From a virus, in the IMG/VR virus record IMGVR_UViG_3300021960_006627, positions 1-64,000 of that record: a stretch of DNA of 64,000 bases; one strand, given 5' to 3'. The position numbers and the translations under genes are program-made. Under the pieces are notes generated by a model. It did not search any database. It was not told where the DNA came from and was given only the letters and a program-made list of their open reading frames with translations. Below are positions 45,027 to 55,225 of the stretch, in pieces. Position 1 is the first letter of the stretch, and each line of letters opens with the position of its first letter.

Positions 45027-45055
45027 ATTATATAGTCACAAAAAAAGCCAGTCAA
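45027..45055 (-). promoter_or_regulatory. Sigma70 promoter overlapping terminator
   Basis: TTGACT-17 nt-TATAAT. Confidence 0.7.
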
Positions 45056-45073
45056 CTAATTAACTGGCTTTTT
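45040..45073 (-). terminator. Intrinsic terminator
   Basis: AAAAAGCCAGT...ACTGGCTTTTT inverted repeat ending the 45-50 kb array. Confidence 0.75.
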
Positions 45074-45091: not shown

Positions 45092-46033
45092 TTATTTGCC
45101 GCAGTTTGGACCACAGTTGCAATCGTCGCCGCAATTGCCTTTGCACTCGCAATCTGGACCACAGTTACAATCCTTTCCTTCGTTTAAGCCTTTTTCAACA
45201 ACGTCATACATTTCAAAACGTCCGCCGTTTCTTTCATATAGCATTGCAGCAAAAATTTCCTGCTTGTTTGTTTCTTCAACTTTTGAAACAGCAACTCTGT
45301 TTGCCCAGTTCCAAAGAACATCGTCCATAGGATCGATAGCCTGCTGTCCGCCGCTTTCGCGTACCATCTTCATCATTTCAACGAATGACATCTTAGGTTC
45401 AACGGATTCCTTGACCGTTTCTTTTTTCTTTTTAGGTTCTTTGGCTTCGTCCATTTCTTTATCATCAGACTTCTTGCCTTTTACCATATTCTTAAATTTT
45501 TCCTGTGCTTTCTTCTGTGCTGCTGATTTCTTAGCCTCAACTATTTCGCCGTCCATGTCTTCAAATGTAACGGATTCGTTTTTCTTTTTCTTCTTGTATT
45601 CTTCCATACAAGACTCAATCATTTCTTTTAATTTTTCTTGATCGCAGCCTGAATATTCCTTGCAAATTGCTGCTTTAGTCATGCCCTTGCCACACATTAA
45701 TAAAACTTCTTTCTTGCTAGGCATTTTTTCTTTGTTGTCGCCTTTTTCTGCTTTGACAACTTGTTCTGCTTCTTTTACAGGCTCTTTCTTTTTCTTAGCA
45801 TCTTTAGCAGCCTTCTTCATAGGCTCTTTCTTGTCGCCATCTTTGTCCATATCAAGAAAGTCTGGTTTTGCTGCTTCTTTTACTTTTGAATCTTTTTTCG
45901 CTTCGGTAACTACTTCTTTAGCACCCAGCGCAATACCTGTTGATTCCGCCAGTTGTGTGAAATGCTGTAAATCCTGACCTGGCGTAGTAGGATCTAATTC
46001 GCGCATCTTTTTAATTATATTTCTAAAGTCCAT
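45092..46033 (-). CDS. Lys/Glu-rich putative prohead core/internal protein with Cys-rich C-terminal tail
   Basis: Many (V/I/L/M)-x-E-(A/S/G) sites; DMDKDGD motif; 8-Cys tail; TAAATA at 46057-46062. Confidence 0.5.
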   Translation of the reverse strand: MDFRNIIKKMRELDPTTPGQDLQHFTQLAESTGIALGAKEVVTEAKKDSKVKEAAKPDFLDMDKDGDKKEPMKKAAKDAKKKKEPVKEAEQVVKAEKGDNKEKMPSKKEVLLMCGKGMTKAAICKEYSGCDQEKLKEMIESCMEEYKKKKKNESVTFEDMDGEIVEAKKSAAQKKAQEKFKNMVKGKKSDDKEMDEAKEPKKKKETVKESVEPKMSFVEMMKMVRESGGQQAIDPMDDVLWNWANRVAVSKVEETNKQEIFAAMLYERNGGRFEMYDVVEKGLNEGKDCNCGPDCECKGNCGDDCNCGPNCGK

Positions 46034-46059
46034 CGTAGTTTCCTTTGTATAGTAAGTAT

Positions 46060-46473
46060 TTATCTTCTTACCGGGTTCTCACCAAAAATACTATTCTTCA
46101 TATCCAGCGCATTTTTAGCAGTTCCGTTGGCTGCTTTTGGCTGTTTAACCACAGGTTGTGGTGGTGCTTTTGTACCTGATTTACCAGGACTTCCTGTATA
46201 TGACTTCTTACCACGTGCTTTGCCTGGGCTTAGATGTGGTGCTTCTACACTTGCTATATTACCAGAACTCGTAGCGCCTGCTGTGGCAGATTCCATCTTT
46301 TCTTTATCCTTGTCCAATGCTGCTTTACGCTTCATTATTTCTTTTTTAAGTTCAGGATCCTTTGATGTGTTTGGATCTGCCTGTAGATCCTGTAGTGCTT
46401 TTTGTTTCGCGTGGTAATCAGCCTTGTCTTTTGTAGGCGTATATGCTTCTGAAAATAGTTCGTTTAATTTCAT
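46060..46473 (-). CDS. Putative internal virion protein
   Basis: Starts MKLNELFSE; TAAATA 5 nt upstream; ESATAGATSSGNIA module. Confidence 0.55.
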   Translation of the reverse strand: MKLNELFSEAYTPTKDKADYHAKQKALQDLQADPNTSKDPELKKEIMKRKAALDKDKEKMESATAGATSSGNIASVEAPHLSPGKARGKKSYTGSPGKSGTKAPPQPVVKQPKAANGTAKNALDMKNSIFGENPVRR

Positions 46474-46481
46474 ATTATTAT

Positions 46482-46682
46482 TTAGCCCTTGTTGCGTCCG
46501 CTTTTCATATTTGCGCACCAGTGATACATTTTAGCACGTTCTCCACTAGCATTTTTAGCCTTTTTACGTAGGCTAGTTACGCTTCCTTTACAACTAGCAC
46601 CAGCACGTTTTACACGTCCTGGACGGCTCTTGCCCTTCTTCTTACCATCAGCAAAGTTTTCAACTAGTTCAAATATTCTCAT
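46482..46682 (-). CDS. Small basic putative internal virion protein
   Basis: Starts MRIFELVE; highly basic remainder. Confidence 0.55.
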   Translation of the reverse strand: MRIFELVENFADGKKKGKSRPGRVKRAGASCKGSVTSLRKKAKNASGERAKMYHWCANMKSGRNKG

Positions 46683-47656
46683 TTCTTCTTGCGTCCTGCG
46701 CAGTGTGCTTTTTGGCTAAAGCCCTTTGGATTAGAGCAGTTGATGCTTTTCTTGTATTTGGCACTCCACTTTTCTTCTATGTAATTTCTAATTAGGCTTT
46801 GGAAACTTTCTTCTATCTCTGCCTTTAGTTTTTTAGCAGTCCTCTCAAACTTGTGATCCTTGTGCTTGAACCCTATGCCTCCGGCACTTTCCCACGCTGC
46901 AATATTAACACCATAATCGTCAATGAGGATATTAGGTGTGCCGTCGGGGTTTGTCGCATACTTCGCCTTATCCTTTGTTATGATGACTTCAGTTGGTGGG
47001 AAGAAGTCTAGATTCTTTTCAATCCATTCGCGCTTGTGTGGTTCCGATTTAGGATCGTTAGCCAATGGTGAACTTAGAATCTTGTAGTTTCCTTTAACCT
47101 GTTTAATAATGCCGAGTAATTTTTTTGCGTTTGATGTAAGAGGAATGTTTAACCAAAAGTCTTCCTCGTCTCTAATTTTTTTAAGTGCTGGTTCGATTTC
47201 GTCCTTATTAATTTCTCTCCAGTCCTTGCCTACCAACTTCTTCCACTCACCAAAGAAGTCTGCTAGAACACCATCCATATCAACATATATTTCTGATTTA
47301 GGATTTAGTCCTTGGAACATATCCTCATAGGCTATGCTTTCCTTTTTCTTTTTCTTCTTGGGGAATAATTTCTTAACGTTCATGTATTCGCCGCCTACGG
47401 GAACGTCTGCTGTTGCATTCTGTTTTGTAACTATGCCAACACCTGCTGCTTCTTCAGATGTTTTCTTTTTGGTAGGTAATCCCTTGTGCTTGGTTTTAGC
47501 AAAGTCTTTGACATCACTCTTTTTCATATCTTTAGCAACTTTGCCTGCTTCGCCAGACTTTTTCATATCGCCCTTTTGCATTGCTCTTACAATACCAAAG
47601 AACTGCTGCTGCTTTTTGCTAACTGCTTTTTCAGATATGATCTCGTATGCTCTCAT
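46679..47656 (-). CDS. Modular protein containing a HAD 5'(3')-deoxyribonucleotidase-like domain and small basic modules
   Basis: IYVDMDGVLADF, LSSP, ILIDD; N-terminal MRAYEIISE and AVSKKQQ...FAKTKHKGLP (DUF3008-like). Confidence 0.7.
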   Translation of the reverse strand: MRAYEIISEKAVSKKQQQFFGIVRAMQKGDMKKSGEAGKVAKDMKKSDVKDFAKTKHKGLPTKKKTSEEAAGVGIVTKQNATADVPVGGEYMNVKKLFPKKKKKKESIAYEDMFQGLNPKSEIYVDMDGVLADFFGEWKKLVGKDWREINKDEIEPALKKIRDEEDFWLNIPLTSNAKKLLGIIKQVKGNYKILSSPLANDPKSEPHKREWIEKNLDFFPPTEVIITKDKAKYATNPDGTPNILIDDYGVNIAAWESAGGIGFKHKDHKFERTAKKLKAEIEESFQSLIRNYIEEKWSAKYKKSINCSNPKGFSQKAHCAGRKKK

Positions 47657-47853
47657 TCTATGGGTTTCTCGCCTGTTAGTTTTGGTAGTGCGAACCACAA
47701 CTTAAACCATTCAGGGGTTCCTGGTTGTATGTTGTGTTTCTTTTCTAGATATTGTTTTTCCGTGCCTGTGATCGATAGATTGGGTCCGTCATATGCTTTC
47801 CAGCCATGACGTTCATAGATGCCCGCAAGTCTTTTTAACTCTTCTATCTCCAT
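47653..47853 (-). CDS. Hypothetical protein
   Basis: MEIEELKRLAGI...IQPGTPEWFKLWF. Confidence 0.55.
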   Translation of the reverse strand: MEIEELKRLAGIYERHGWKAYDGPNLSITGTEKQYLEKKHNIQPGTPEWFKLWFALPKLTGEKPIE

Positions 47854-48794
47854 TACATCTTAACACAATTATCAACTCGTTTGCCACCCTTCATCTTGGT
47901 GCCCATGCGCTTGTAGCCTTTCCAGCATACCTTGCCATCAACGCCCTTTTGCTTTTCTTCATTAACACTTTCATACTGCTTTTGCATTTCTTCTGGTAGT
48001 GCCGTAAAGCGAGCCTTGCCACATTCTGAACATACTGCTTCGTTTGTTCTTTTTAATGCTTTGGCTACACTAGGATGGTCTGCTAGTCCAGGAGCAATTT
48101 TGTTTATCACTTCCACTGCACCCGTGTAGTTACCGCCCTTGTATCTTGGATCGTTTAAAACACCAAAGGCCATCTTGATTTCCTTGTCGGAAAATCCTAT
48201 GTTGTCCTTGTCGTGCATGTCCTCTTCTGTTCTATCTCCATCAACATCAGGAACGTTTAGTTCATTTTCCAAGTAATGTTTGGCCTTGCTGATCATTTGT
48301 AGGCTCTTAACAACCTTTGCCTGCCACCAGTGGGGGAAATCACTGTCAGCGGGTAGGTCTTCTAGCATTTCAAACATCTCTTTGGCATACTTTGCCATTT
48401 GGTAAAGTTCCTTGCGAATCATGTTACGCTCATCATCTGTATGTCCGATAGGGGTATTTTCGGTTGCTACAGATTCTTCTTTTTCATCTTCATCTGGCTT
48501 AGGATCCGGATCCTTAACTTTTTGTAATGAAGTGTCCTTTTGCTGTTGAGCCCATTTCATCATCTTCAAGATCTGTTCCTTACTCAGTCTAACCTTTTTA
48601 GAAAGTTCGTCTATGCTTGATGCTCCGCCAGGCTCACCGTATCTTGTTAGTTCGTCACCGAGTCTACCTAGCACGTTTGATAGTGCGTCATCCTTGACTG
48701 TGACTGATTTATCCATTAGTATTCTTCCCATTCGGGCAAGTTCTCCACCTGCCGGATTAGTATATGCCGATCTTTCTTTATCCATTATACCCAT
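47853..48794 (-). CDS. Modular hypothetical protein
   Basis: Several helical modules plus C-terminal CWKGYKRMGTKMKGGKRVDNCV. Confidence 0.6.
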   Translation of the reverse strand: MGIMDKERSAYTNPAGGELARMGRILMDKSVTVKDDALSNVLGRLGDELTRYGEPGGASSIDELSKKVRLSKEQILKMMKWAQQQKDTSLQKVKDPDPKPDEDEKEESVATENTPIGHTDDERNMIRKELYQMAKYAKEMFEMLEDLPADSDFPHWWQAKVVKSLQMISKAKHYLENELNVPDVDGDRTEEDMHDKDNIGFSDKEIKMAFGVLNDPRYKGGNYTGAVEVINKIAPGLADHPSVAKALKRTNEAVCSECGKARFTALPEEMQKQYESVNEEKQKGVDGKVCWKGYKRMGTKMKGGKRVDNCVKM

Positions 48795-48808
48795 TGTTTT
48801 CCCCTTGT

Positions 48809-49423
48809 TTAATCCTCGGTATTATCCGATAATCCCATTCCTTTTCTTACTGCGGCGAATAATTCTTCCGCATGTTCTCCAGCACCTGTGTGTGCTGTGA
48901 AACTTTTTAAATCGTTATTAGCGGCATCTTCTCTTGCTTTGGTTCCGCTTATGCCTTCAACACCCTCTGCTCCGTCCTCTCTTGCGCCTGCGCTTACAAA
49001 CTCAAGAGTTTCAAATTTGTATTTGTTTTCCAAAGGACCCTTCTTTCCCTCTTCCTTTCCGTTGTATGCAACCAATTGATCGTATAAATTCTTTCTATCA
49101 TCTCCACCCACGAATGTTGCATGTGTGTAGCCTTGGTCATTTAGATATTGTGCAACCTTGGTTATTGTGTTTAGGTTCGTGTCCTCAACTACATTATCTG
49201 CATATTCAGAATGTATCTTTCTAATAAAATCTACCTTGGCAGAATAGTCTAGTGGATTCTTTTTTGCGTCCTGGCTCATGGTAGTAAAGATTTTCATGTC
49301 TCCTCCTTGTGCCTTCATTTTTTTGAAAACTTCCTTGTGTCCTAAGGTAGGAGGATTAAACCTTCCAAAGCAGAAGGTTACGTGTTTGTCAGTATCTGCT
49401 TCGAATAATTCTCTAATCTTCAT
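48809..49423 (-). CDS. Cytidyltransferase-like (HxGH-class) nucleotidyltransferase
   Basis: FGRFNPPTLGH, KNPL, VGGDDR, ISGTKAR; starts MKIRELFE. Confidence 0.75.
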   Translation of the reverse strand: MKIRELFEADTDKHVTFCFGRFNPPTLGHKEVFKKMKAQGGDMKIFTTMSQDAKKNPLDYSAKVDFIRKIHSEYADNVVEDTNLNTITKVAQYLNDQGYTHATFVGGDDRKNLYDQLVAYNGKEEGKKGPLENKYKFETLEFVSAGAREDGAEGVEGISGTKAREDAANNDLKSFTAHTGAGEHAEELFAAVRKGMGLSDNTED

Positions 49424-49748
49424 AGTCGCCACGCTCTATGTATTTTTCCTGTTCTCCGGAAATAGTTCTCGCTAATGCTATAATATTTTCCTTATTAATT
49501 TTGTCCTGCATGTCTTCTATAGAAAATTTATTACAGTACATTTCTTTACACTGTTCTAATGGCTTGATATATATTTTATAAGCGTCAGGATGACCTTTAT
49601 ATTTCATGTGTTTCTTAATTGCAGGAAACAATACTTTACTCATTACTTCATTATCACTATCGATGAATATCTTTAGATCTTCGATATAGTTTATGTCATC
49701 GTTATCCGATGGTGCGCCTATGGGTGAGAATAATTCATTTAGTTTCAT
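49413..49748 (-). CDS. Hypothetical protein
   Basis: Starts MKLNELFS, identical to the 46473 gene. Confidence 0.6.
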   Translation of the reverse strand: MKLNELFSPIGAPSDNDDINYIEDLKIFIDSDNEVMSKVLFPAIKKHMKYKGHPDAYKIYIKPLEQCKEMYCNKFSIEDMQDKINKENIIALARTISGEQEKYIERGDYED

Positions 49749-49751
49749 CAG

Positions 49752-50432
49752 TTACCATTTCCTACATGACCAGTATCGTGCTTTTGTTCTTGGACCCGGG
49801 TTATCACAATTGTGTCTAGCACGGAATGATTTTCTACGTGCTGGATTAGATTTTTTAATACGCATATTAGGATCACCAAAATTTACTTTCTTTACATTTT
49901 TAGTCTTTGGATCTCTGACATATACCTTAAACTTTTTAACATCACCCTGCATGGGTTTGCCAAGTTTAACCTTGCGTCCTCTGTATTCTGCTTCATCTAC
50001 AATATCTTCGTGCCAAGGTAAGAAACCATAATACTCGTAGAACTCCTCACCTTCAAATGTTTGTTCGTCGGATTCGTCTGCGCTTTCCCCTTGCGAGTAT
50101 TTGTTATCGGAATTCTTGATAATATCCATAGCATCGTCAAATGCAGCATCCATTGCTGCTTCGTGATCCGGACCATCGGATTGGACAACAGCAGTTGCTA
50201 GTTCGTCGTCTAGTTTATTGTTGCCGTCGCCTTCTGCTTCACCTCTTAGCGAGTTAGGATCAACTTCAGCATAGTAACCATGCTCATCGCTTTGCTTAAT
50301 TTGTGCTTTGTAGTATAGTGTTCCGAAGCCTGTTTCACCATCATCACCAGTAAATTCAAATTCAGTCTCACCCTCCATTTCCTTGGGCATGAAACCTTCT
50401 AATAGTTGTAGTTTGTCCAATAGATCTCGCAT
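49752..50432 (-). CDS. Modular protein: acidic N-terminal half plus basic C-terminal module
   Basis: VDE-AEYRGRKVKLGKP...NFGD...RRKSFRARHNC...ARYWSC; TAAATA at 50461-50466. Confidence 0.6.
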   Translation of the reverse strand: MRDLLDKLQLLEGFMPKEMEGETEFEFTGDDGETGFGTLYYKAQIKQSDEHGYYAEVDPNSLRGEAEGDGNNKLDDELATAVVQSDGPDHEAAMDAAFDDAMDIIKNSDNKYSQGESADESDEQTFEGEEFYEYYGFLPWHEDIVDEAEYRGRKVKLGKPMQGDVKKFKVYVRDPKTKNVKKVNFGDPNMRIKKSNPARRKSFRARHNCDNPGPRTKARYWSCRKW

Positions 50433-50481
50433 AGCATAATCCCTTTATAGATTTATACTGTATTTAGCGCAGAATGTAAAG

Positions 50482-50835
50482 TTAATAGTTATAGCGAATT
50501 TCGGTAATAGTACCGTTTTGCAGGTTATATCCTGCCCTAATCCACACAAATTTGCCAGTAAATGTGCGTGTGTATGTGCCCTGAGAGAATAAACTGCTAT
50601 CTCCACCAATTTCTGTAGATCCTATATCAACCCAGTCATTATCTCCGGGATATTGCTCGAGCGTTCCTTGAATTTTGACTGTGCCAACAAAATTATCTAA
50701 TACGTATGCAACTGTATGCACTCCATCACCATTACTATGATATCCAGCCCCCTTAGACTTTTCTCCATAGGAAAATGTGGAATCTGCTGCTACTGCATCG
50801 ATGTTTGATAATAATGTTTTAGTTTCTATAGGCAT
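50482..50835 (-). CDS. Hypothetical beta-rich (possibly structural) protein
   Basis: TAAATAcagtATG; FTGKFVWIRA. Confidence 0.55.
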   Translation of the reverse strand: MPIETKTLLSNIDAVAADSTFSYGEKSKGAGYHSNGDGVHTVAYVLDNFVGTVKIQGTLEQYPGDNDWVDIGSTEIGGDSSLFSQGTYTRTFTGKFVWIRAGYNLQNGTITEIRYNY

Positions 50836-50842
50836 ACTGTAT

Positions 50843-51526
50843 TTATCGGTTTATCACGTATTTGTGAACTCTGCCTAGTACTTCTGATGACCTTAATTTA
50901 ATCATTAGTAGTGTGGATTCACTATCAACGTATATGTATCTACGGTCCCAATTTGATTCAGTAGAAAGCAACCACTTTTTAATAGAACTAGTAAATGTAA
51001 TATTTGGTCTTTGATTATCTAACCAATTTGCTAATGCAGCCTTTTCGTCCCGTCTAACTCTATGTGGTTTGAGATATACCTTAAATTGATACTTGTCGTG
51101 TGGTAATTTCTTGCAAAAAATTTCTTTATTGCTTTCTAGCAATTGTTGTTCCTTGCCTTTTTCCGGTTGTGATCTTAATACACAAAATTGTTCGAATTCT
51201 AATCCTATTGTATTATACATAGATTTATCATTGGTGTAAAAATCTATATAATCCCCTTCTAGTCTCTTGGACCATGTCTTATTATCATATTGATTTAATA
51301 TGCCTATAAGTTTTATCCAATGATGTGAATTATCACGTAGTTCCTTAAATACTCTATCTCTCCATTTTGTTCCTTCAGAGAAGTCCTGCTGAACGCATTT
51401 GTTTAATACTTCATCCAATGAATTATATCTAAGAGATGCGCTTCCTTTTAAGTTTAACGTAATTTTATAGATGTATTTGTTATAAAACTTTTTTTTCGTT
51501 TTTTTAGGTGTCGGAAGTTTGTTCAT
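50843..51526 (-). CDS. Hypothetical protein
   Basis: ORF overlapping clpA end. Confidence 0.6.
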   Translation of the reverse strand: MNKLPTPKKTKKKFYNKYIYKITLNLKGSASLRYNSLDEVLNKCVQQDFSEGTKWRDRVFKELRDNSHHWIKLIGILNQYDNKTWSKRLEGDYIDFYTNDKSMYNTIGLEFEQFCVLRSQPEKGKEQQLLESNKEIFCKKLPHDKYQFKVYLKPHRVRRDEKAALANWLDNQRPNITFTSSIKKWLLSTESNWDRRYIYVDSESTLLMIKLRSSEVLGRVHKYVINR

Positions 51527-53861
51527 TTTCCTGCTGTTCCTTGCTTGCTTTTTCCTCTAGGGCTTTTGCTTTAAGTGCTTTCTTTTCAGCCTTTGTAAGA
51601 GGTTTAGGCATCTCTTGGATGTCAAAAACAGGTTCATTATCCGAAATGCTAATAGTAACCTTTCCGCCATTAACTAAATCGCCAAACAATACTTTTTTAC
51701 TTAAAGGTGTTTTAATCTTGTTATCGATTATTCTTGACAATGGTCTAGCACCCATCTTAGGACTATACCCTTCTTTAGATAACCAATCAATAGCATCCTG
51801 TTCTGCATTAATTAAAATATTTTTATCTTTTAATTGTGCATTTAAGTCGCTTATAAATTTCTTTACAATGCTTGACATAACACTTGATGATAATTTATTG
51901 AACTTAATAGTACCATCTAATCTGTTTCTAAATTCAGGAGTAAAGAATTTTTTAACTGCCTTCTCGTCCTCATCATCTTTTTCGAGGTCATCAAAGCCAA
52001 TTGTATTTGTTTCATTATCGGCAGCACCGAGATTTGATGTCATAATAAGAATTGTGTTTCTACCGTCAGCCTGCTTGCCGTTGCTTCCCGTAACAAATCC
52101 ATTATCCATAAATTGTAAAAGTATGTTAGATACATCTTGGTGTGCTTTTTCTATTTCATCTAATAATAGTATAGCGTTTGGACTTTCTTGCAATTTAGTA
52201 ATCAACTGTCCTGCATTTTCTTCATAACCAACGTATCCCGGAGGAGCACCAATTAATCTTGCCACCGAGTGTTTCTCTTGATATTCACTCATGTCAAAAC
52301 GTAAAAGTGTCATGCCCATTTTTTCAGCAAGTTGTTTCGCTGTTTCGGTCTTACCACAGCCTGTTGGTCCAAGGAATAAGAAACTACCGATTGGTTTATT
52401 AGGTGATTTTAATCCTGCTTGGGCAACAAATATTTTATCCAAGAGTGTTTCAACGGCACTATCCTGGCCATATACCACTGACTTCATTGAGCCTTCAAGG
52501 CCTGAAAGATTTTTACTTTCCTTCTGGGCAACAGTTTCTAAAGGCATATTAATCATCTTAGAAAGTTCGTATGTAATTTGTTCAACATCGACTATCTGTT
52601 GTACTCCTTCTTCAACTGGATCATCATTTAATTTGTATCTTGCTGATGCACAGTCTATGATATCAATAGCCTTGTCAGGTAGTTTTTTATCAGCCATGTA
52701 TTTTACTGATAACTTAACTGCCTGATCGATCGCTTCATCGGTAATGGCAACATTGTGATGATTCTCGTAATACTTTTTTAGGCCCTTGATAATTTTTACA
52801 GTAAGTTCTGCTGTAGGCTCGTCAATGGTCAATCTATGAAAACGTCTCATTAAAGCACGATCCTTTTCAAAGTACTTGCGATATTCCTCCCAGGTAGTTG
52901 AAGCAATCACTTTAAGATTTCCTTTAGCAAGAGCAGGTTTAAGCATGTTTGCTAGATCGTTTGAATTTTGACTCGCAGTTCCTGCACCACTCATCATGTG
53001 TGCTTCATCAATGAAAAGAATAATTTTTCCTTTTCTATCCAGCGCCATAAGAACCGCTTTAATTCTTTCTTCAAAATCGCCACGGTATTTTGAACCAGCA
53101 ACAAGTGCTCCGATATCCAAACTAAAAACGGAATGATCCTGAATAAACTTAGGAACTTTCTTTTCAAAAATCTTTCTTGCTAGTCCTTCTGCTATAGCGG
53201 TTTTACCCACCCCAGGATCACCAACTAATAAAACATTGGATTTATTTCTTCTAGCGAGTACTAGTTCTATGTTTTCTATTTCATCGTCACGTCCAATTAC
53301 AGGATCAATAACTTTTTGTTTTGCTTTTAAGGATAGATTATCACAGAAAGTGTTAATAATTTTATCCATTTGATCGTTTGACAATGCTGCTTCTCTTCCT
53401 TCTTCTGCAAATGGATCTTCATCACCTATGAAATGATCTTGGAAATGCTGTACAAATTTTTCTTTTGTTATACCACCTTTGGTAAGGAAGTAAAATGCAA
53501 ATGAATTCTTTTCAGATAATATGCTTATAATAACATCAGCAGTTTCCATTTGATTACGACCGCTGAATAACACTTGTGTGAAGCATCTATTTAAAACACG
53601 TTCGACGGTGTTTGTTTTTTTAGGAACAAAAATTTCTTCTGTTGTTATAATATCTTTTAGATTGTTCTTTAGATAGTGTTCAATATTTGATCTAATATAT
53701 TCAACATCAGCACCATATGCCTTTAAGCCTTCGTACGAATCTTTATCAGAAAAGATTGCAAAAGTAAGATGTTCAATTGTAATAAGTTTGTGCTTGAACT
53801 TTTTTGCTATTTCAATTGAGTCGTCAAAAATCTTTTGTAGTTGTTGGCTAGGCTCTATCAT
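51504..53861 (-). CDS. clpA: ClpA-like AAA+ unfoldase
   Basis: N-domain; GDPGVGKT/LFIDEAH; GPTGCGKT/LLLDEIEK; IGF loop (NTIGFDD); PEFRNRLD; MGARPL. Confidence 0.92.
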   Translation of the reverse strand: MIEPSQQLQKIFDDSIEIAKKFKHKLITIEHLTFAIFSDKDSYEGLKAYGADVEYIRSNIEHYLKNNLKDIITTEEIFVPKKTNTVERVLNRCFTQVLFSGRNQMETADVIISILSEKNSFAFYFLTKGGITKEKFVQHFQDHFIGDEDPFAEEGREAALSNDQMDKIINTFCDNLSLKAKQKVIDPVIGRDDEIENIELVLARRNKSNVLLVGDPGVGKTAIAEGLARKIFEKKVPKFIQDHSVFSLDIGALVAGSKYRGDFEERIKAVLMALDRKGKIILFIDEAHMMSGAGTASQNSNDLANMLKPALAKGNLKVIASTTWEEYRKYFEKDRALMRRFHRLTIDEPTAELTVKIIKGLKKYYENHHNVAITDEAIDQAVKLSVKYMADKKLPDKAIDIIDCASARYKLNDDPVEEGVQQIVDVEQITYELSKMINMPLETVAQKESKNLSGLEGSMKSVVYGQDSAVETLLDKIFVAQAGLKSPNKPIGSFLFLGPTGCGKTETAKQLAEKMGMTLLRFDMSEYQEKHSVARLIGAPPGYVGYEENAGQLITKLQESPNAILLLDEIEKAHQDVSNILLQFMDNGFVTGSNGKQADGRNTILIMTSNLGAADNETNTIGFDDLEKDDEDEKAVKKFFTPEFRNRLDGTIKFNKLSSSVMSSIVKKFISDLNAQLKDKNILINAEQDAIDWLSKEGYSPKMGARPLSRIIDNKIKTPLSKKVLFGDLVNGGKVTISISDNEPVFDIQEMPKPLTKAEKKALKAKALEEKASKEQQENEQTSDT

Positions 53862-54387
53862 TTTTTATTTTTTTCCTTAACTTATTTAATTTCTTCATTG
53901 CTAATTGTAACTTCAGTTTCCCCACTCTGTCAAGAAAAGTTACGCCATTTAGGTGATCAAACTCATGCTGAAAACATTTGGCTAGATATCCTTCAATTCT
54001 ACCTTCTTTGGTTTCGCCCTTGGCATTTTGCCATTGGCCTACTATCCATGTGGGTCTAGTAACCTTTAATAATAATCCTGGAAAACTTAAACACCCTTCG
54101 GTGTCTAATATTGTTTCTTTGCTGGCTTCTAACACTGTTGGGTTAAAAAGAGCAAATGGTTTTGGAAAGTTAGGCAAATCTTCACTACCCATTACAAAGA
54201 CACGTTTCTTGAGATCAATTTGATTAGCCGCTAACCCTATTCCTTTATGCTGGATCATAAAATTACACATGTCCCATTCTAATTTTTCAGGATCATATTT
54301 TTCCTTATCGAACTCCCAAACATCGCTGGCTTGGTTTAGTGCTTCGTGCAATCCTAATTTATAATCTATGTCTAGTTTATATTCCAT
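53848..54387 (-). CDS. def: Peptide deformylase
   Basis: GIGLAANQ, EGCLS, QHEFDHLNG. Confidence 0.95.
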   Translation of the reverse strand: MEYKLDIDYKLGLHEALNQASDVWEFDKEKYDPEKLEWDMCNFMIQHKGIGLAANQIDLKKRVFVMGSEDLPNFPKPFALFNPTVLEASKETILDTEGCLSFPGLLLKVTRPTWIVGQWQNAKGETKEGRIEGYLAKCFQHEFDHLNGVTFLDRVGKLKLQLAMKKLNKLRKKIKNDRA

Positions 54388-55225
54388 TTTTTAATTTTGC
54401 AATTATTTCTAATTGATCCTTGGTTAATTTTTTTGGTACCTGTGCCTTAATCCTAATAAGCAGATCACCATTTCTTTTTGTTCTAATGTTTGGTAATCCT
54501 TCGCTTTTACAACTTAGGACAGTATCCGGTTGTGTTCCAGCAGGAATGTTAATTTCTAAATTCTTGCCAGTGAGTGTTTTGATATTTGTTTTGCAACCTA
54601 ACATAAGATCGAAAACATTTATTTTAGACTCACATAGTATATTATCCCCGTGTCTTTCAAACACCGGGTGATTCCGAACACGGATAGTAACAATCAAATC
54701 ACCGGGCCTAAATCCAGGATGTAGATCCTCACCCATTCCTTGATATCTTATTTGTTGTCCCGACTCAATACCTTTTGGTATGTTTATCGTTATCAATTTA
54801 GTTTGACCATTCGACATCTGTAATTCCACGGCAACGTCCTTGCCCGTCATTACATCTTCCAAAAATACATCAAATGCTATATTGGTTGAATGATTTTGTC
54901 TAGGAGCTCTGTTTCTATTTCCAAACCCCATTCCCCTGAATAGGTCTTCCATATCATCAAATGCACTCCCTGCACCACCCCATCTAAAGTCAAATCCTTG
55001 GAAGCCATTTCGGAATTGATCGCCTTTTGGACCTTTATAATCGTAATTTGATTTTGTTTCGGGATTACTAAGACAATCGTATGCTTCCCTAATGTGCATG
55101 AATTTTACTTCATCACCGCCTCTGTCAGGGTGATGTTGCATGGCTAATTTTCTGTAGGCGGCCTTTATTTCAGCAGGTGATGCGTCTCTTTTTACACCTA
55201 AAGTTTCGTAATAATCTCGAGCCAT
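54377..55225 (-). CDS. dnaJ: DnaJ/CbpA-like co-chaperone (no Zn finger)
   Basis: J-domain with HPD, G/F region, C-terminal domain. Confidence 0.9.
   Translation of the reverse strand: MARDYYETLGVKRDASPAEIKAAYRKLAMQHHPDRGGDEVKFMHIREAYDCLSNPETKSNYDYKGPKGDQFRNGFQGFDFRWGGAGSAFDDMEDLFRGMGFGNRNRAPRQNHSTNIAFDVFLEDVMTGKDVAVELQMSNGQTKLITINIPKGIESGQQIRYQGMGEDLHPGFRPGDLIVTIRVRNHPVFERHGDNILCESKINVFDLMLGCKTNIKTLTGKNLEINIPAGTQPDTVLSCKSEGLPNIRTKRNGDLLIRIKAQVPKKLTKDQLEIIAKLKNGI

Follow-up and report, generated by a model that had tools for sequence, protein, structure and literature searches.

Probable late operon of head-cargo proteins with T4-type leaders and Glu-ended module joints on a fragment of a marine jumbo phage

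The capsid targeting sequence (CTS) and the variable internal proteins (IPs) of T-even phages are textbook knowledge, and processing of head proteins at multiple sites is known in phiKZ-like phages. Here, we describe a block of nine consecutive genes (g1 to g9, positions 50432 to 45092; minus strand, as are all features of the block given below) in the 64,000-nucleotide stretch of viral DNA that was analyzed (the window), which forms the first 64 kb of a linear 79.8-kb fragment (IMG/VR record IMGVR_UViG_3300021960_006627). In our reading, this block is probably a late operon from a marine T4-related jumbo phage of ~350 kb and encodes head cargo, proteins loaded by way of short N-terminal leaders and cut at the joints between their modules. 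In T4, a CTS of 10 residues is enough for packaging; its processing depends on residues 8 and 10 and is blocked by Asp at position 10 (PMC9026906). IPI, IPII, IPIII and Alt are CTS proteins processed by the prohead protease gp21 (Mullaney & Black 1996, reviewed in PMC9026906 and PMC3012670). For proteases of the gp21 type, the cleavage site invariably lies after Glu, and some head proteins are cut more than once (PMC5694885). The nearest published concept is that of Aravind's "polyvalent proteins". Full-text literature searches returned no paper linking the CTS to cyanophages or marine T4-like phages, nor any that describes the present pattern, and internal proteins go unmentioned in a review of T4-like cyanophages.

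The fragment is 22% complete according to CheckV, which gives the ~350 kb estimated for the full genome. Its family-B DNA polymerase is nearest to those of Sinorhizobium phage Phosso (51%), Agrobacterium phage Atu_ph07, Vibrio phage 2.275.O and the CBB/PBECO4 group, and the source lineage appears to be a marine jumbo myophage of the Rak2/Atu_ph07-like, T4-distant group. All nine open reading frames (ORFs) were present on the minus strand with the N-termini quoted for them in a preliminary description of the window, and the related N-termini which that description reported across most of the nine were confirmed. The leader M-[KR]-[LIA]-x-E-[LI]-[FIV] opens five of the nine block genes but none of the 101 other ORFs of the 79.8-kb contig (Fisher P = 1e-6; scan pattern M[KRE][LIVAFTY]x(1-2)E[LIVFM][LIVFMA], chance rate per position 0.0015): MKLNELFS in g2, MKIRELFE in g3 (49400-49423), MRAYEIISE in g6 (47630-47656), MRIFELVE in g7 (46659-46682) and MKLNELFSE in g8 (46447-46473). 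Three more genes carry variant leaders that are conserved in relatives, namely MRDLLDKLQLLE in g1 (50397-50432), MEIEELKRLAGIYE in g5 (47812-47853) and MDFRNIIKKMRELDP in g9; the minor types can be written MRDLLxKL...E and MExxELKRLAGIxE, the first being the MRDLL-KL leader that g1 and its relatives keep. Leader-end sites in the window are ISE, LVE, LFE, IYE, LLE and FSE. Such a leader opens about 10% of the ORFs in 89 related viral contigs. The 88 distinct leaders of related loci gave the consensus M-[KRL]-[LAI]-x-E-[LFI]-[FIL], with Glu at position 8-10 in 65 of the 88 and Asp alone there in a single one. For comparison, T4 (NC_000866; a slash marks a cut or joint here and below) has MKTYQEFIAE/A in IPII and IPIII, MKTFKEFTST...ITE/A in IPI and MAKINELLRE/S in gp24, and the block leaders resemble the gp24 propeptide, one residue shorter. 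Because the codings of the two MKLNELFS leaders (g2 and g8) differ at five synonymous positions, selection on the leader acts on the peptide; the same differences ruled out an mRNA-level "regulatory cassette" as the explanation for the common 5' ends. The second leader motif, [KR]LAG[IMV]xE (g5), also stands 5' of internal joints (e.g., DIMRLAGMEE/SATAG): 36 of 56 occurrences of [KRQ]LAG[IMLV] lie within the first 15 residues, and the remainder precede E/SATAG joints.

Beyond their leaders the nine proteins are unrelated, falling into differing Pfam and PHROG families, and several read as chains of short modules. In g1 (49752-50432; 226 aa), the leader is followed by an acidic spacer domain and, after VDE at residue 147, by the basic two-Cys module C (49755-49991; 79 aa, AEYRGRKVKLGKP...HNC...YWSCRKW); [LIVM]xE occurs in g1 at residues 12 and 147 only, and module C together with the DE of the VDE site forms an 81-aa stretch with an isoelectric point (pI) of 10.8. 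The g2 protein (49413-49748; 111 aa) has a conserved PIGAP motif after its leader and found no match in Pfam, PHROG and NCBIfam scans. On g3 (48809-49423; 204 aa) the leader precedes a HIGH-motif nucleotidyltransferase, cytidylyltransferase-like or NMNAT-like (Pfam CTP_transf_like, 1.7e-7; phrog_3041/395 cytidyltransferase, 5e-39; NMNAT/PPAT-type matches in NCBIfam at sub-threshold level only). The body of g4 (47853-48794; 313 aa) leads to VNE at residue 279 and then to the two-Cys module B (47856-47957; EKQKGVDGKVCWKGY...NCVKM), while g5 (47653-47853) spans 66 aa in all. Between the leader and C-terminus of g6 (46679-47656; 325 aa) lie DUF3008 (47459-47629; Pfam, 1.8e-4), an NT5C-type 5'(3')-deoxyribonucleotidase (about 46865-47290; Pfam NT5C, 4.5e-8; PHROG 5'-3' deoxyribonucleotidase, 1.8e-24), IEE at residue 295 and the two-Cys module A (46682-46771; KWSAKYKKSINC...HCAGRKKK). 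Its neighbor g7 (46482-46682; 66 aa) is a leader on the basic two-Cys module D (NFADGKKKGKSRPG...HWCANMK; pI 11.2). In g8 (46060-46473; 137 aa), a 52-aa module ending in KME at residue 61 is followed directly by SATAGATSSGNIASV (46246-46290) and a basic tail, and 265 relatives were found in IMG/VR. The last protein, g9 (45092-46033; 313 aa), carries VKE at residue 53, the PDFLDMDKDGDKKEPMKKA module, a Lys/Glu-rich body, LNE at residue 285 and a Cys-rich tail of 28 C-terminal residues (45095-45178; GKDCNCGPDCECKGNCGDDCNCGPNCGK) with 8 Cys in CxC/CG repeats. It is also worth noting that this tail looks metallothionein-like and that its repeat number varies among relatives.

Six internal sites proposed in the preliminary description as boundaries between modules are all present: IEE/KWSAKYKK, VNE/EKQKG, VDE/AEYRGRK, VKE/AAKPDF, LNE/GKDCNC and ISE/KAVSKK. 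Joint statistics were computed for eight modules in 50 mutually dissimilar upstream contexts, with boundaries taken from the shuffling seen among homologues and from stand-alone genes. P1, the residue just before the module, was Glu in 49 of 50 contexts and Asp in none, against backgrounds of 8.3% and 7.8%, respectively. Module boundaries therefore coincide with Glu sites beyond what Glu-richness predicts, the comparison on which the claim had been staked in advance. P3 was L, I, V or M in 30 of 50 joint contexts versus a background of 18% (P = 7e-11, joint p-values being optimistic because the joint columns were chosen with the data in view and a module's contexts have common ancestry). All nine distinct upstream contexts of module C end in E, and module D is preceded by VVE, ILE, IIE, IEE, LKE and ITE in six unrelated contexts. 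For the ATAGATS-type segment of g8, E stands before it in 11 of 12 contexts, and for the PDFLD module (g9 type) a Glu lies 2-5 residues upstream in 20 of 20. As a separate observation, a 540-aa g6 homologue on a related contig (L084:7847-9469, plus strand; the same contig as L011:5805-7427) reads ...RKKKESIEE/ITRRDLLKGLGVAGAAAATGAKVDIAQA/AEW... after module A, and the segment following IEE looks like a twin-arginine export signal that would become N-terminal only after cutting; a search for internal signals of this type found this single case, too few for evidence.

The mix-and-match arrangement of modules was likewise confirmed when the nine proteins were compared by blastp with the ORFs of the 89 related contigs, in which modules appear shuffled, fused, split or placed directly on a leader. 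In about 21 ORFs, module D (the body of g7) forms the C-terminal end of a g6 homologue, and split and fused forms of g6/g7 are separated by small indels at the joint. Other relatives of g6 have a ParB-like module inserted after DUF3008 or module A, have dropped DUF3008 or module A, or have g7 appended, and chains of a g8-type N-terminus or leader with modules B and C were also seen. Leaders sit directly on a module in MRAQEFILE/KWSKKYK, MRIFEVVE/NFADG, MRAHQFVDE/EAAGVGI, MRAYQFLTE/EKKVTVYTDP, MRAYQFISE/KAVSKK and MKIREIFE/TATAG. Module C, which matches phrog_7595, ranks among the most frequent small protein modules of viruses in ocean data: at E below 1e-3, the matches listed include >7900 protein clusters, its relatives are often 93-99% identical on contigs of up to 330 kb (98-99% identical copies on contigs of 258-330 kb), and they sit under leaders such as MTKSFKDYLGE, MKNFKEYLSE and MKITEIILE. 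Matches in the ESM Atlas were viral "hypothetical protein" clusters only, with DUF5754 on 25% of one cluster, and an AlphaFold2 model of module C from a 13-row alignment was unusable (mean predicted local distance difference test score, 46; predicted template-modeling score, 0.21). In cultured phages, matches to modules were drawn from blastn and annotated loci only. Pelagibacter siphophage Kolga encodes module C as a stand-alone 79-aa protein that starts exactly at the joint (gp56, MAKYQGRTVKL) and module B as a stand-alone 32-aa protein (gp57); SSM2_163 of cyanophage S-SM2 (MPAVSKAQQKFFG) is a DUF3008 protein starting right after the ISE/K boundary. Module B lies inside proteins of cyanophage S-RIM32 and Melnitz-2, and the PDFLD module was clearly matched within a protein of cyanophage P-TIM68.

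Virion data are available for a homologue of g3. The cyanophage protein T4-GC190, with which g3 shares 38% identity (E = 2e-42), was found by mass spectrometry (MS) in purified S-SM1 virions with 25 peptide counts versus 8 for gp21 (Sullivan et al. 2010, PMC3037559), as were GC1453, GC1454 and GC1455 with 12, 10 and 7 counts (PMC3037559), the products of the genes flanking T4-GC190 in S-SM1. T4-GC190 begins MKKFSAFLNE/A in S-SM1, MKKFSAFLTE/A in S-RIM2, MKSFSQFLTE/T in P-SSM2 and MKSFFQFLSE/A in S-SM2, which reads as a near-canonical T4 CTS; GC1455 begins MLSFKELQE/K, and the virion protein GC1454 has a looser DxDNDGD motif (LDPVGQEDDDVDNDGD) whose likeness to the PDFLD module is by motif only. 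The cultured T4-like phage Melnitz-2 encodes a 650-aa protein in which MKKFSEIIE/A is followed by a nucleotidyltransferase, a segment like module B and module C, together with genes starting MQGFKTFLSE/A and MKKFSELTSELIE/R and an NT5C gene. The T4-GC190 locus of cyanomyophages (S-SM2, S-RIM32, P-SSM2 and Melnitz-2) shares with the window a g3 homologue and proteins of the DUF3008, module B, DxDNDGD and NT5C types, but its leaders are of the 10-residue T4 type (MKxFxxFLxE), whereas the window has shorter versions in other combinations. Sullivan et al. (2010) listed products of the locus as structural or hypothetical and proposed no CTS, processing or cargo role for them (PMC3037559).

Head genes of the lineage were found in a relative (G005) whose DNA polymerase is 71% identical to that of the window and is set in the same gene order. 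Its T4-type head module comprises a portal, a Peptidase_S77 protease (6.8e-26), a Gp23-family capsid protein (1e-96), an acidic core protein starting MSKKFEKLLDYLVNE, an 81-aa protein starting MLLREF and a scaffold protein (L093:10381-11472, minus strand) that ends in ILDIRKLAGLK, an LAG motif akin to the g5 leader. A 61-aa leader gene (MRIHEIITE...) lies directly behind the capsid gene. In the capsid protein itself (L093:9178-10359, minus strand; ...RRYLAE/AATAGATSSGNVATL), we infer from a reading by eye (MAFFT placed YLAEA elsewhere) that LAE/AATAGATSSGN is the maturation site equivalent to LTE/AEIGG of T4 gp23. The KME/SATAGATSSGNIASV segment of g8 aligns to this LAE/AATAGATSSGNVATL site, by which the joints would follow the local pattern of the capsid's putative cleavage site, and many genes of the g8 family begin MKIxEIxE/TATAGATSxGNIATV. 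In g8 and many relatives, E/[ST]ATAGATSxGN[IV]A is nearly identical to the residues after the predicted capsid site; such a copied capsid N-arm in cargo could be a decoy substrate or a piece that docks to the capsid wall. Separately, the portal ORF of G005 (L093:13659-16640, minus strand; 993 aa) appears by eye to hold an intein-like insert (...NPLCLDLNTKIPLLDG ... HNFHTFAIESGIFVKNS...). The leaders that resemble the T4 CTS and gp24, the MS detection of a homologue in S-SM1 virions and the S77 protease and Gp23 capsid of this relative together support the capsid-targeting role that had been suggested for the block N-termini.

Compared with the T4 IPs, the window proteins share a short conserved leader with an aliphatic-x-Glu end on unrelated, variable and often small basic proteins, an S77 protease and Gp23 capsid in the lineage (here via the relative) and enzyme cargo (Alt in T4; the nucleotidyltransferase and nucleotidase here). 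They differ in that only the leader pattern is shared, the mature parts having no homology to IPI, IPII, IPIII or Alt in Pfam, PHROG and NCBIfam scans and a reading of the T4 IP sequences; in that their main leader is 8-9 residues long, leaders of several types occur together and the genes are grouped into a single operon; and in that they are strung together from shuffled mini-modules whose internal joints repeat the leader-end site, an architecture absent from the T4 IPs. Like the window's source, phiKZ, 201phi2-1 and SPN3US (Thomas et al. 2010, 2012; PMC5694885; PMC7411985) are jumbo phages; their protease is related to gp21 and cleaves after Glu, many of their head proteins are processed, some of them repeatedly, and paralogues have conserved N-termini "reminiscent of T4 CTSs" (PMC5694885). 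However, their proteases favor a small P3 (S/A/G-x-E, A-x-E) whereas P3 is mostly V, I, L or M here, they have large paralogue families rather than strings of 30-80-aa modules exchanged at joints, and their lineage (Chimalliviridae-like) is unrelated to the Rak2/Atu_ph07-like group. Polyvalent proteins (Iyer et al. 2017), as far as they are characterized in PMC9503650, which cites that work, are similarly multidomain, virion-embedded and predicted to be injected as early-acting effectors, but are large, with head-packaged effectors often carrying a MuF head domain, in contrast to the small to medium proteins with a T4-type leader and prohead-protease sites described here. A Pfam scan of the window proteins (66-325 aa) showed no MuF or peptidase domain.

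How the block might work can be outlined as follows. Expression would be late, as the promoter motif suggests. Each protein except g4 would carry a leader of 8-14 residues ending in aliphatic-x-Glu (main type M-[KR]-[LIA]-x-E-[LFI]-[FIL]-x-E), which, by analogy with the T4 CTS and gp24 propeptide, would dock it onto the scaffolding core during prohead assembly. An S77 (gp21-type) prohead protease would then very probably cut after the leader Glu and, judging from the site statistics and the identity with the capsid maturation site, would probably also cut exposed [LIVM]-x-E joints. This would free the nucleotidyltransferase, the deoxyribonucleotidase and small, very basic peptides, many with two Cys, which could stay with the packed DNA. 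Acidic spacers might escape from the head, and the cargo would be delivered to the next host along with the DNA. As predictions, packaging and removal of the leader have good support, and cutting at the internal joints is somewhat favored. Nucleotide-pool enzymes that arrive with the DNA and basic peptides that ride on it are reasonable guesses only as to the role of the cargo. The predicted cut fragments include basic peptides of 30-81 aa with a pI of 10-11 (modules A, B, C and D and the g8 tail), acidic spacers, the Cys-rich 28-mer and enzyme domains of 200-290 aa (an NMNAT/cytidylyltransferase-like fragment of 196 aa and a DUF3008-NT5C fragment of 286 aa). Maturation into many small basic, often two-Cys peptides and enzymes, as originally proposed, would thus hold for some fragments, but acidic spacers would be produced as well and only some pieces are small, basic and two-Cys.

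Besides the optimism of the joint p-values, several observations weigh against this interpretation. The g4 protein begins MGIMDKERS and has no leader, and g2 (MKLNELFSP) lacks Glu at positions 8-10. Within modules, [LIVM]xE was not significantly depleted (20 observed versus 25.8 expected; z = -1.3) and g9 alone holds 16 such sites, so that the motif is insufficient for cutting and accessibility would have to pick the cut sites. A tblastn search of 50,697 cultured phage records found no match for g8 (nor for module B). Kolga, a siphophage, carries modules B and C without a visible T4-type leader, so these modules are independent of the T4-type loading route. The 79.8-kb fragment, at 22% completeness, yielded no protease, capsid or scaffold gene, and the cognate protease is for this reason inferred from the relative G005; Pfam PF03420 gave no match on the window's contig, and among 15 related fragments, each just 9-28% complete, it was missing from 14.

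Some of these observations would be expected if the leader were the only signal, that is, if the proteins were packaged and trimmed N-terminally but acted as intact multidomain proteins with their internal joints uncut, an explanation that we regard as unlikely yet deserving of attention. The joints would then be relics of earlier leaders that outlasted gene fusions, or short linker codons that recur (ATT GAA GAA-like) and provide microhomology for recombination. The lack of [LIVM]xE depletion inside modules fits this explanation, as does the fact that T4 IPIII and most CTS proteins are cut at the N-terminus only (PMC9026906). Split and fused forms of g6/g7 differ by small indels, with MRIFELVE replacing the linker NEDIEE, and in one related contig (L015) module A is apparently deleted exactly between two I-x-E sites, as recombination between repeated joints predicts. 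However, the strict preference for Glu over Asp at P1 counts against it because a relic or linker would tolerate Asp, and both this preference and the aliphatic P3 hold even after sequence that is not a leader (LKE after the ParB-like domain, ILE and ITE). Furthermore, the E/SATAGATS joints copy the maturation site of the capsid protein itself, and internal or multiple cuts are known for T4 gp22, gp67, gp68 and Alt and for phiKZ and SPN3US head proteins (PMC5694885).

It is improbable that the proteins are not packaged at all and that their N-termini instead serve as a tag for a ClpA-like unfoldase or DnaJ, for targeting to the membrane or pole, or in translation initiation. Genes for ClpA/ClpB-like AAA+ and DnaJ-like proteins do lie 1-4 kb upstream on the same strand, and the contig is without a head gene, but the synonymous variation of leader codons argues against an mRNA-level signal, the leaders fit the patterns of the T4 CTS and gp24 propeptide, and homologues are virion proteins by MS in S-SM1. 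In G005, moreover, a leader gene directly follows the capsid gene and head-core proteins have similar N-termini. Recent duplication as the source of the similar N-termini, with boundary Glu residues supplied by Glu-rich linkers, would suit Lys/Glu-rich proteins and the many [LIVM]xE sites of g9 but is very improbable given nine proteins that are unrelated beyond the leader, the absence of the leader from all 101 other ORFs of the contig and Glu at nearly every P1 with no Asp.

Returning to leader-loaded, joint-cut head cargo, modules could be fused, split, deleted or swapped at joints because leader and joints share one short grammar. A more general proposal, which we offer tentatively and with confidence a little short of even, is that the abundant T4-related phages of the sea, ranging from Kyanoviridae-type myophages up to ~350-kb jumbo phages, share a plug-and-play grammar of capsid cargo, in which any module placed behind a leader or joint would be loaded and freed by the S77 protease. 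The head would then be a programmable vehicle for dozens of shuffled enzymes and tiny basic peptides, some mimicking the capsid N-arm and at least one (in L084) bearing a cryptic export signal. If so, this would explain how non-structural enzymes such as the cyanophage "cytidylyltransferase" reach virions, would assign a role to a large share of the small hypothetical genes in very abundant ocean phages and would allow phages to vary their first-minute arsenal fast through exchange of modules at the protease joints. With the natural leaders and joints, the T4 protein-packaging toolbox could also be extended to other hosts.

The nine genes run head to tail, most of them overlapping or separated by few bases. 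They had been described as nine consecutive late-promoter genes, and while the nine consecutive genes stand, a promoter for each does not. Late-promoter-like TAAATA cores occur only three times within the block, all on the minus strand and just 5' of g1 (50461-50466, with TATAAAT at 50451-50457, ~20-30 nt upstream of the start), g8 (46479-46484, 5 nt before the ATG) and g9 (46057-46062, just upstream), and g2 to g7 abut or overlap their neighbors without space for promoters, which points to a single operon-like unit served by one to three late-type promoters. In the whole window, TAAATA is scarce (41 sites versus 78 +/- 8 expected) and copies stand mostly just 5' of gene starts on the coding strand, a placement and scarcity that fit a late-promoter core avoided elsewhere. 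The block is closed 3' of g9 by an intrinsic-terminator-like hairpin (AGCCAGT...ACTGGCT, then T7; about 45040-45069), which was read by eye and was missed by an automated hairpin scan, its loop being >8 nt. Upstream of the operon and on the same strand, two proteins were identified by eye: a ClpA/ClpB-like double-AAA+ protein of 785 aa with a Clp N-domain-like start (51504-53861) and a DnaJ-like protein (MARDYYETLGV..., from the translation; 54377-55225). A phage unfoldase and co-chaperone beside cargo genes could be relevant to loading, or unrelated. Directly 5' of g1, a 117-aa gene (50482-50835, minus strand) bears its own TAAATAcagtATG and has weak PHROG matches that include phrog_14467, "virion structural protein" (E = 1.9e-4).

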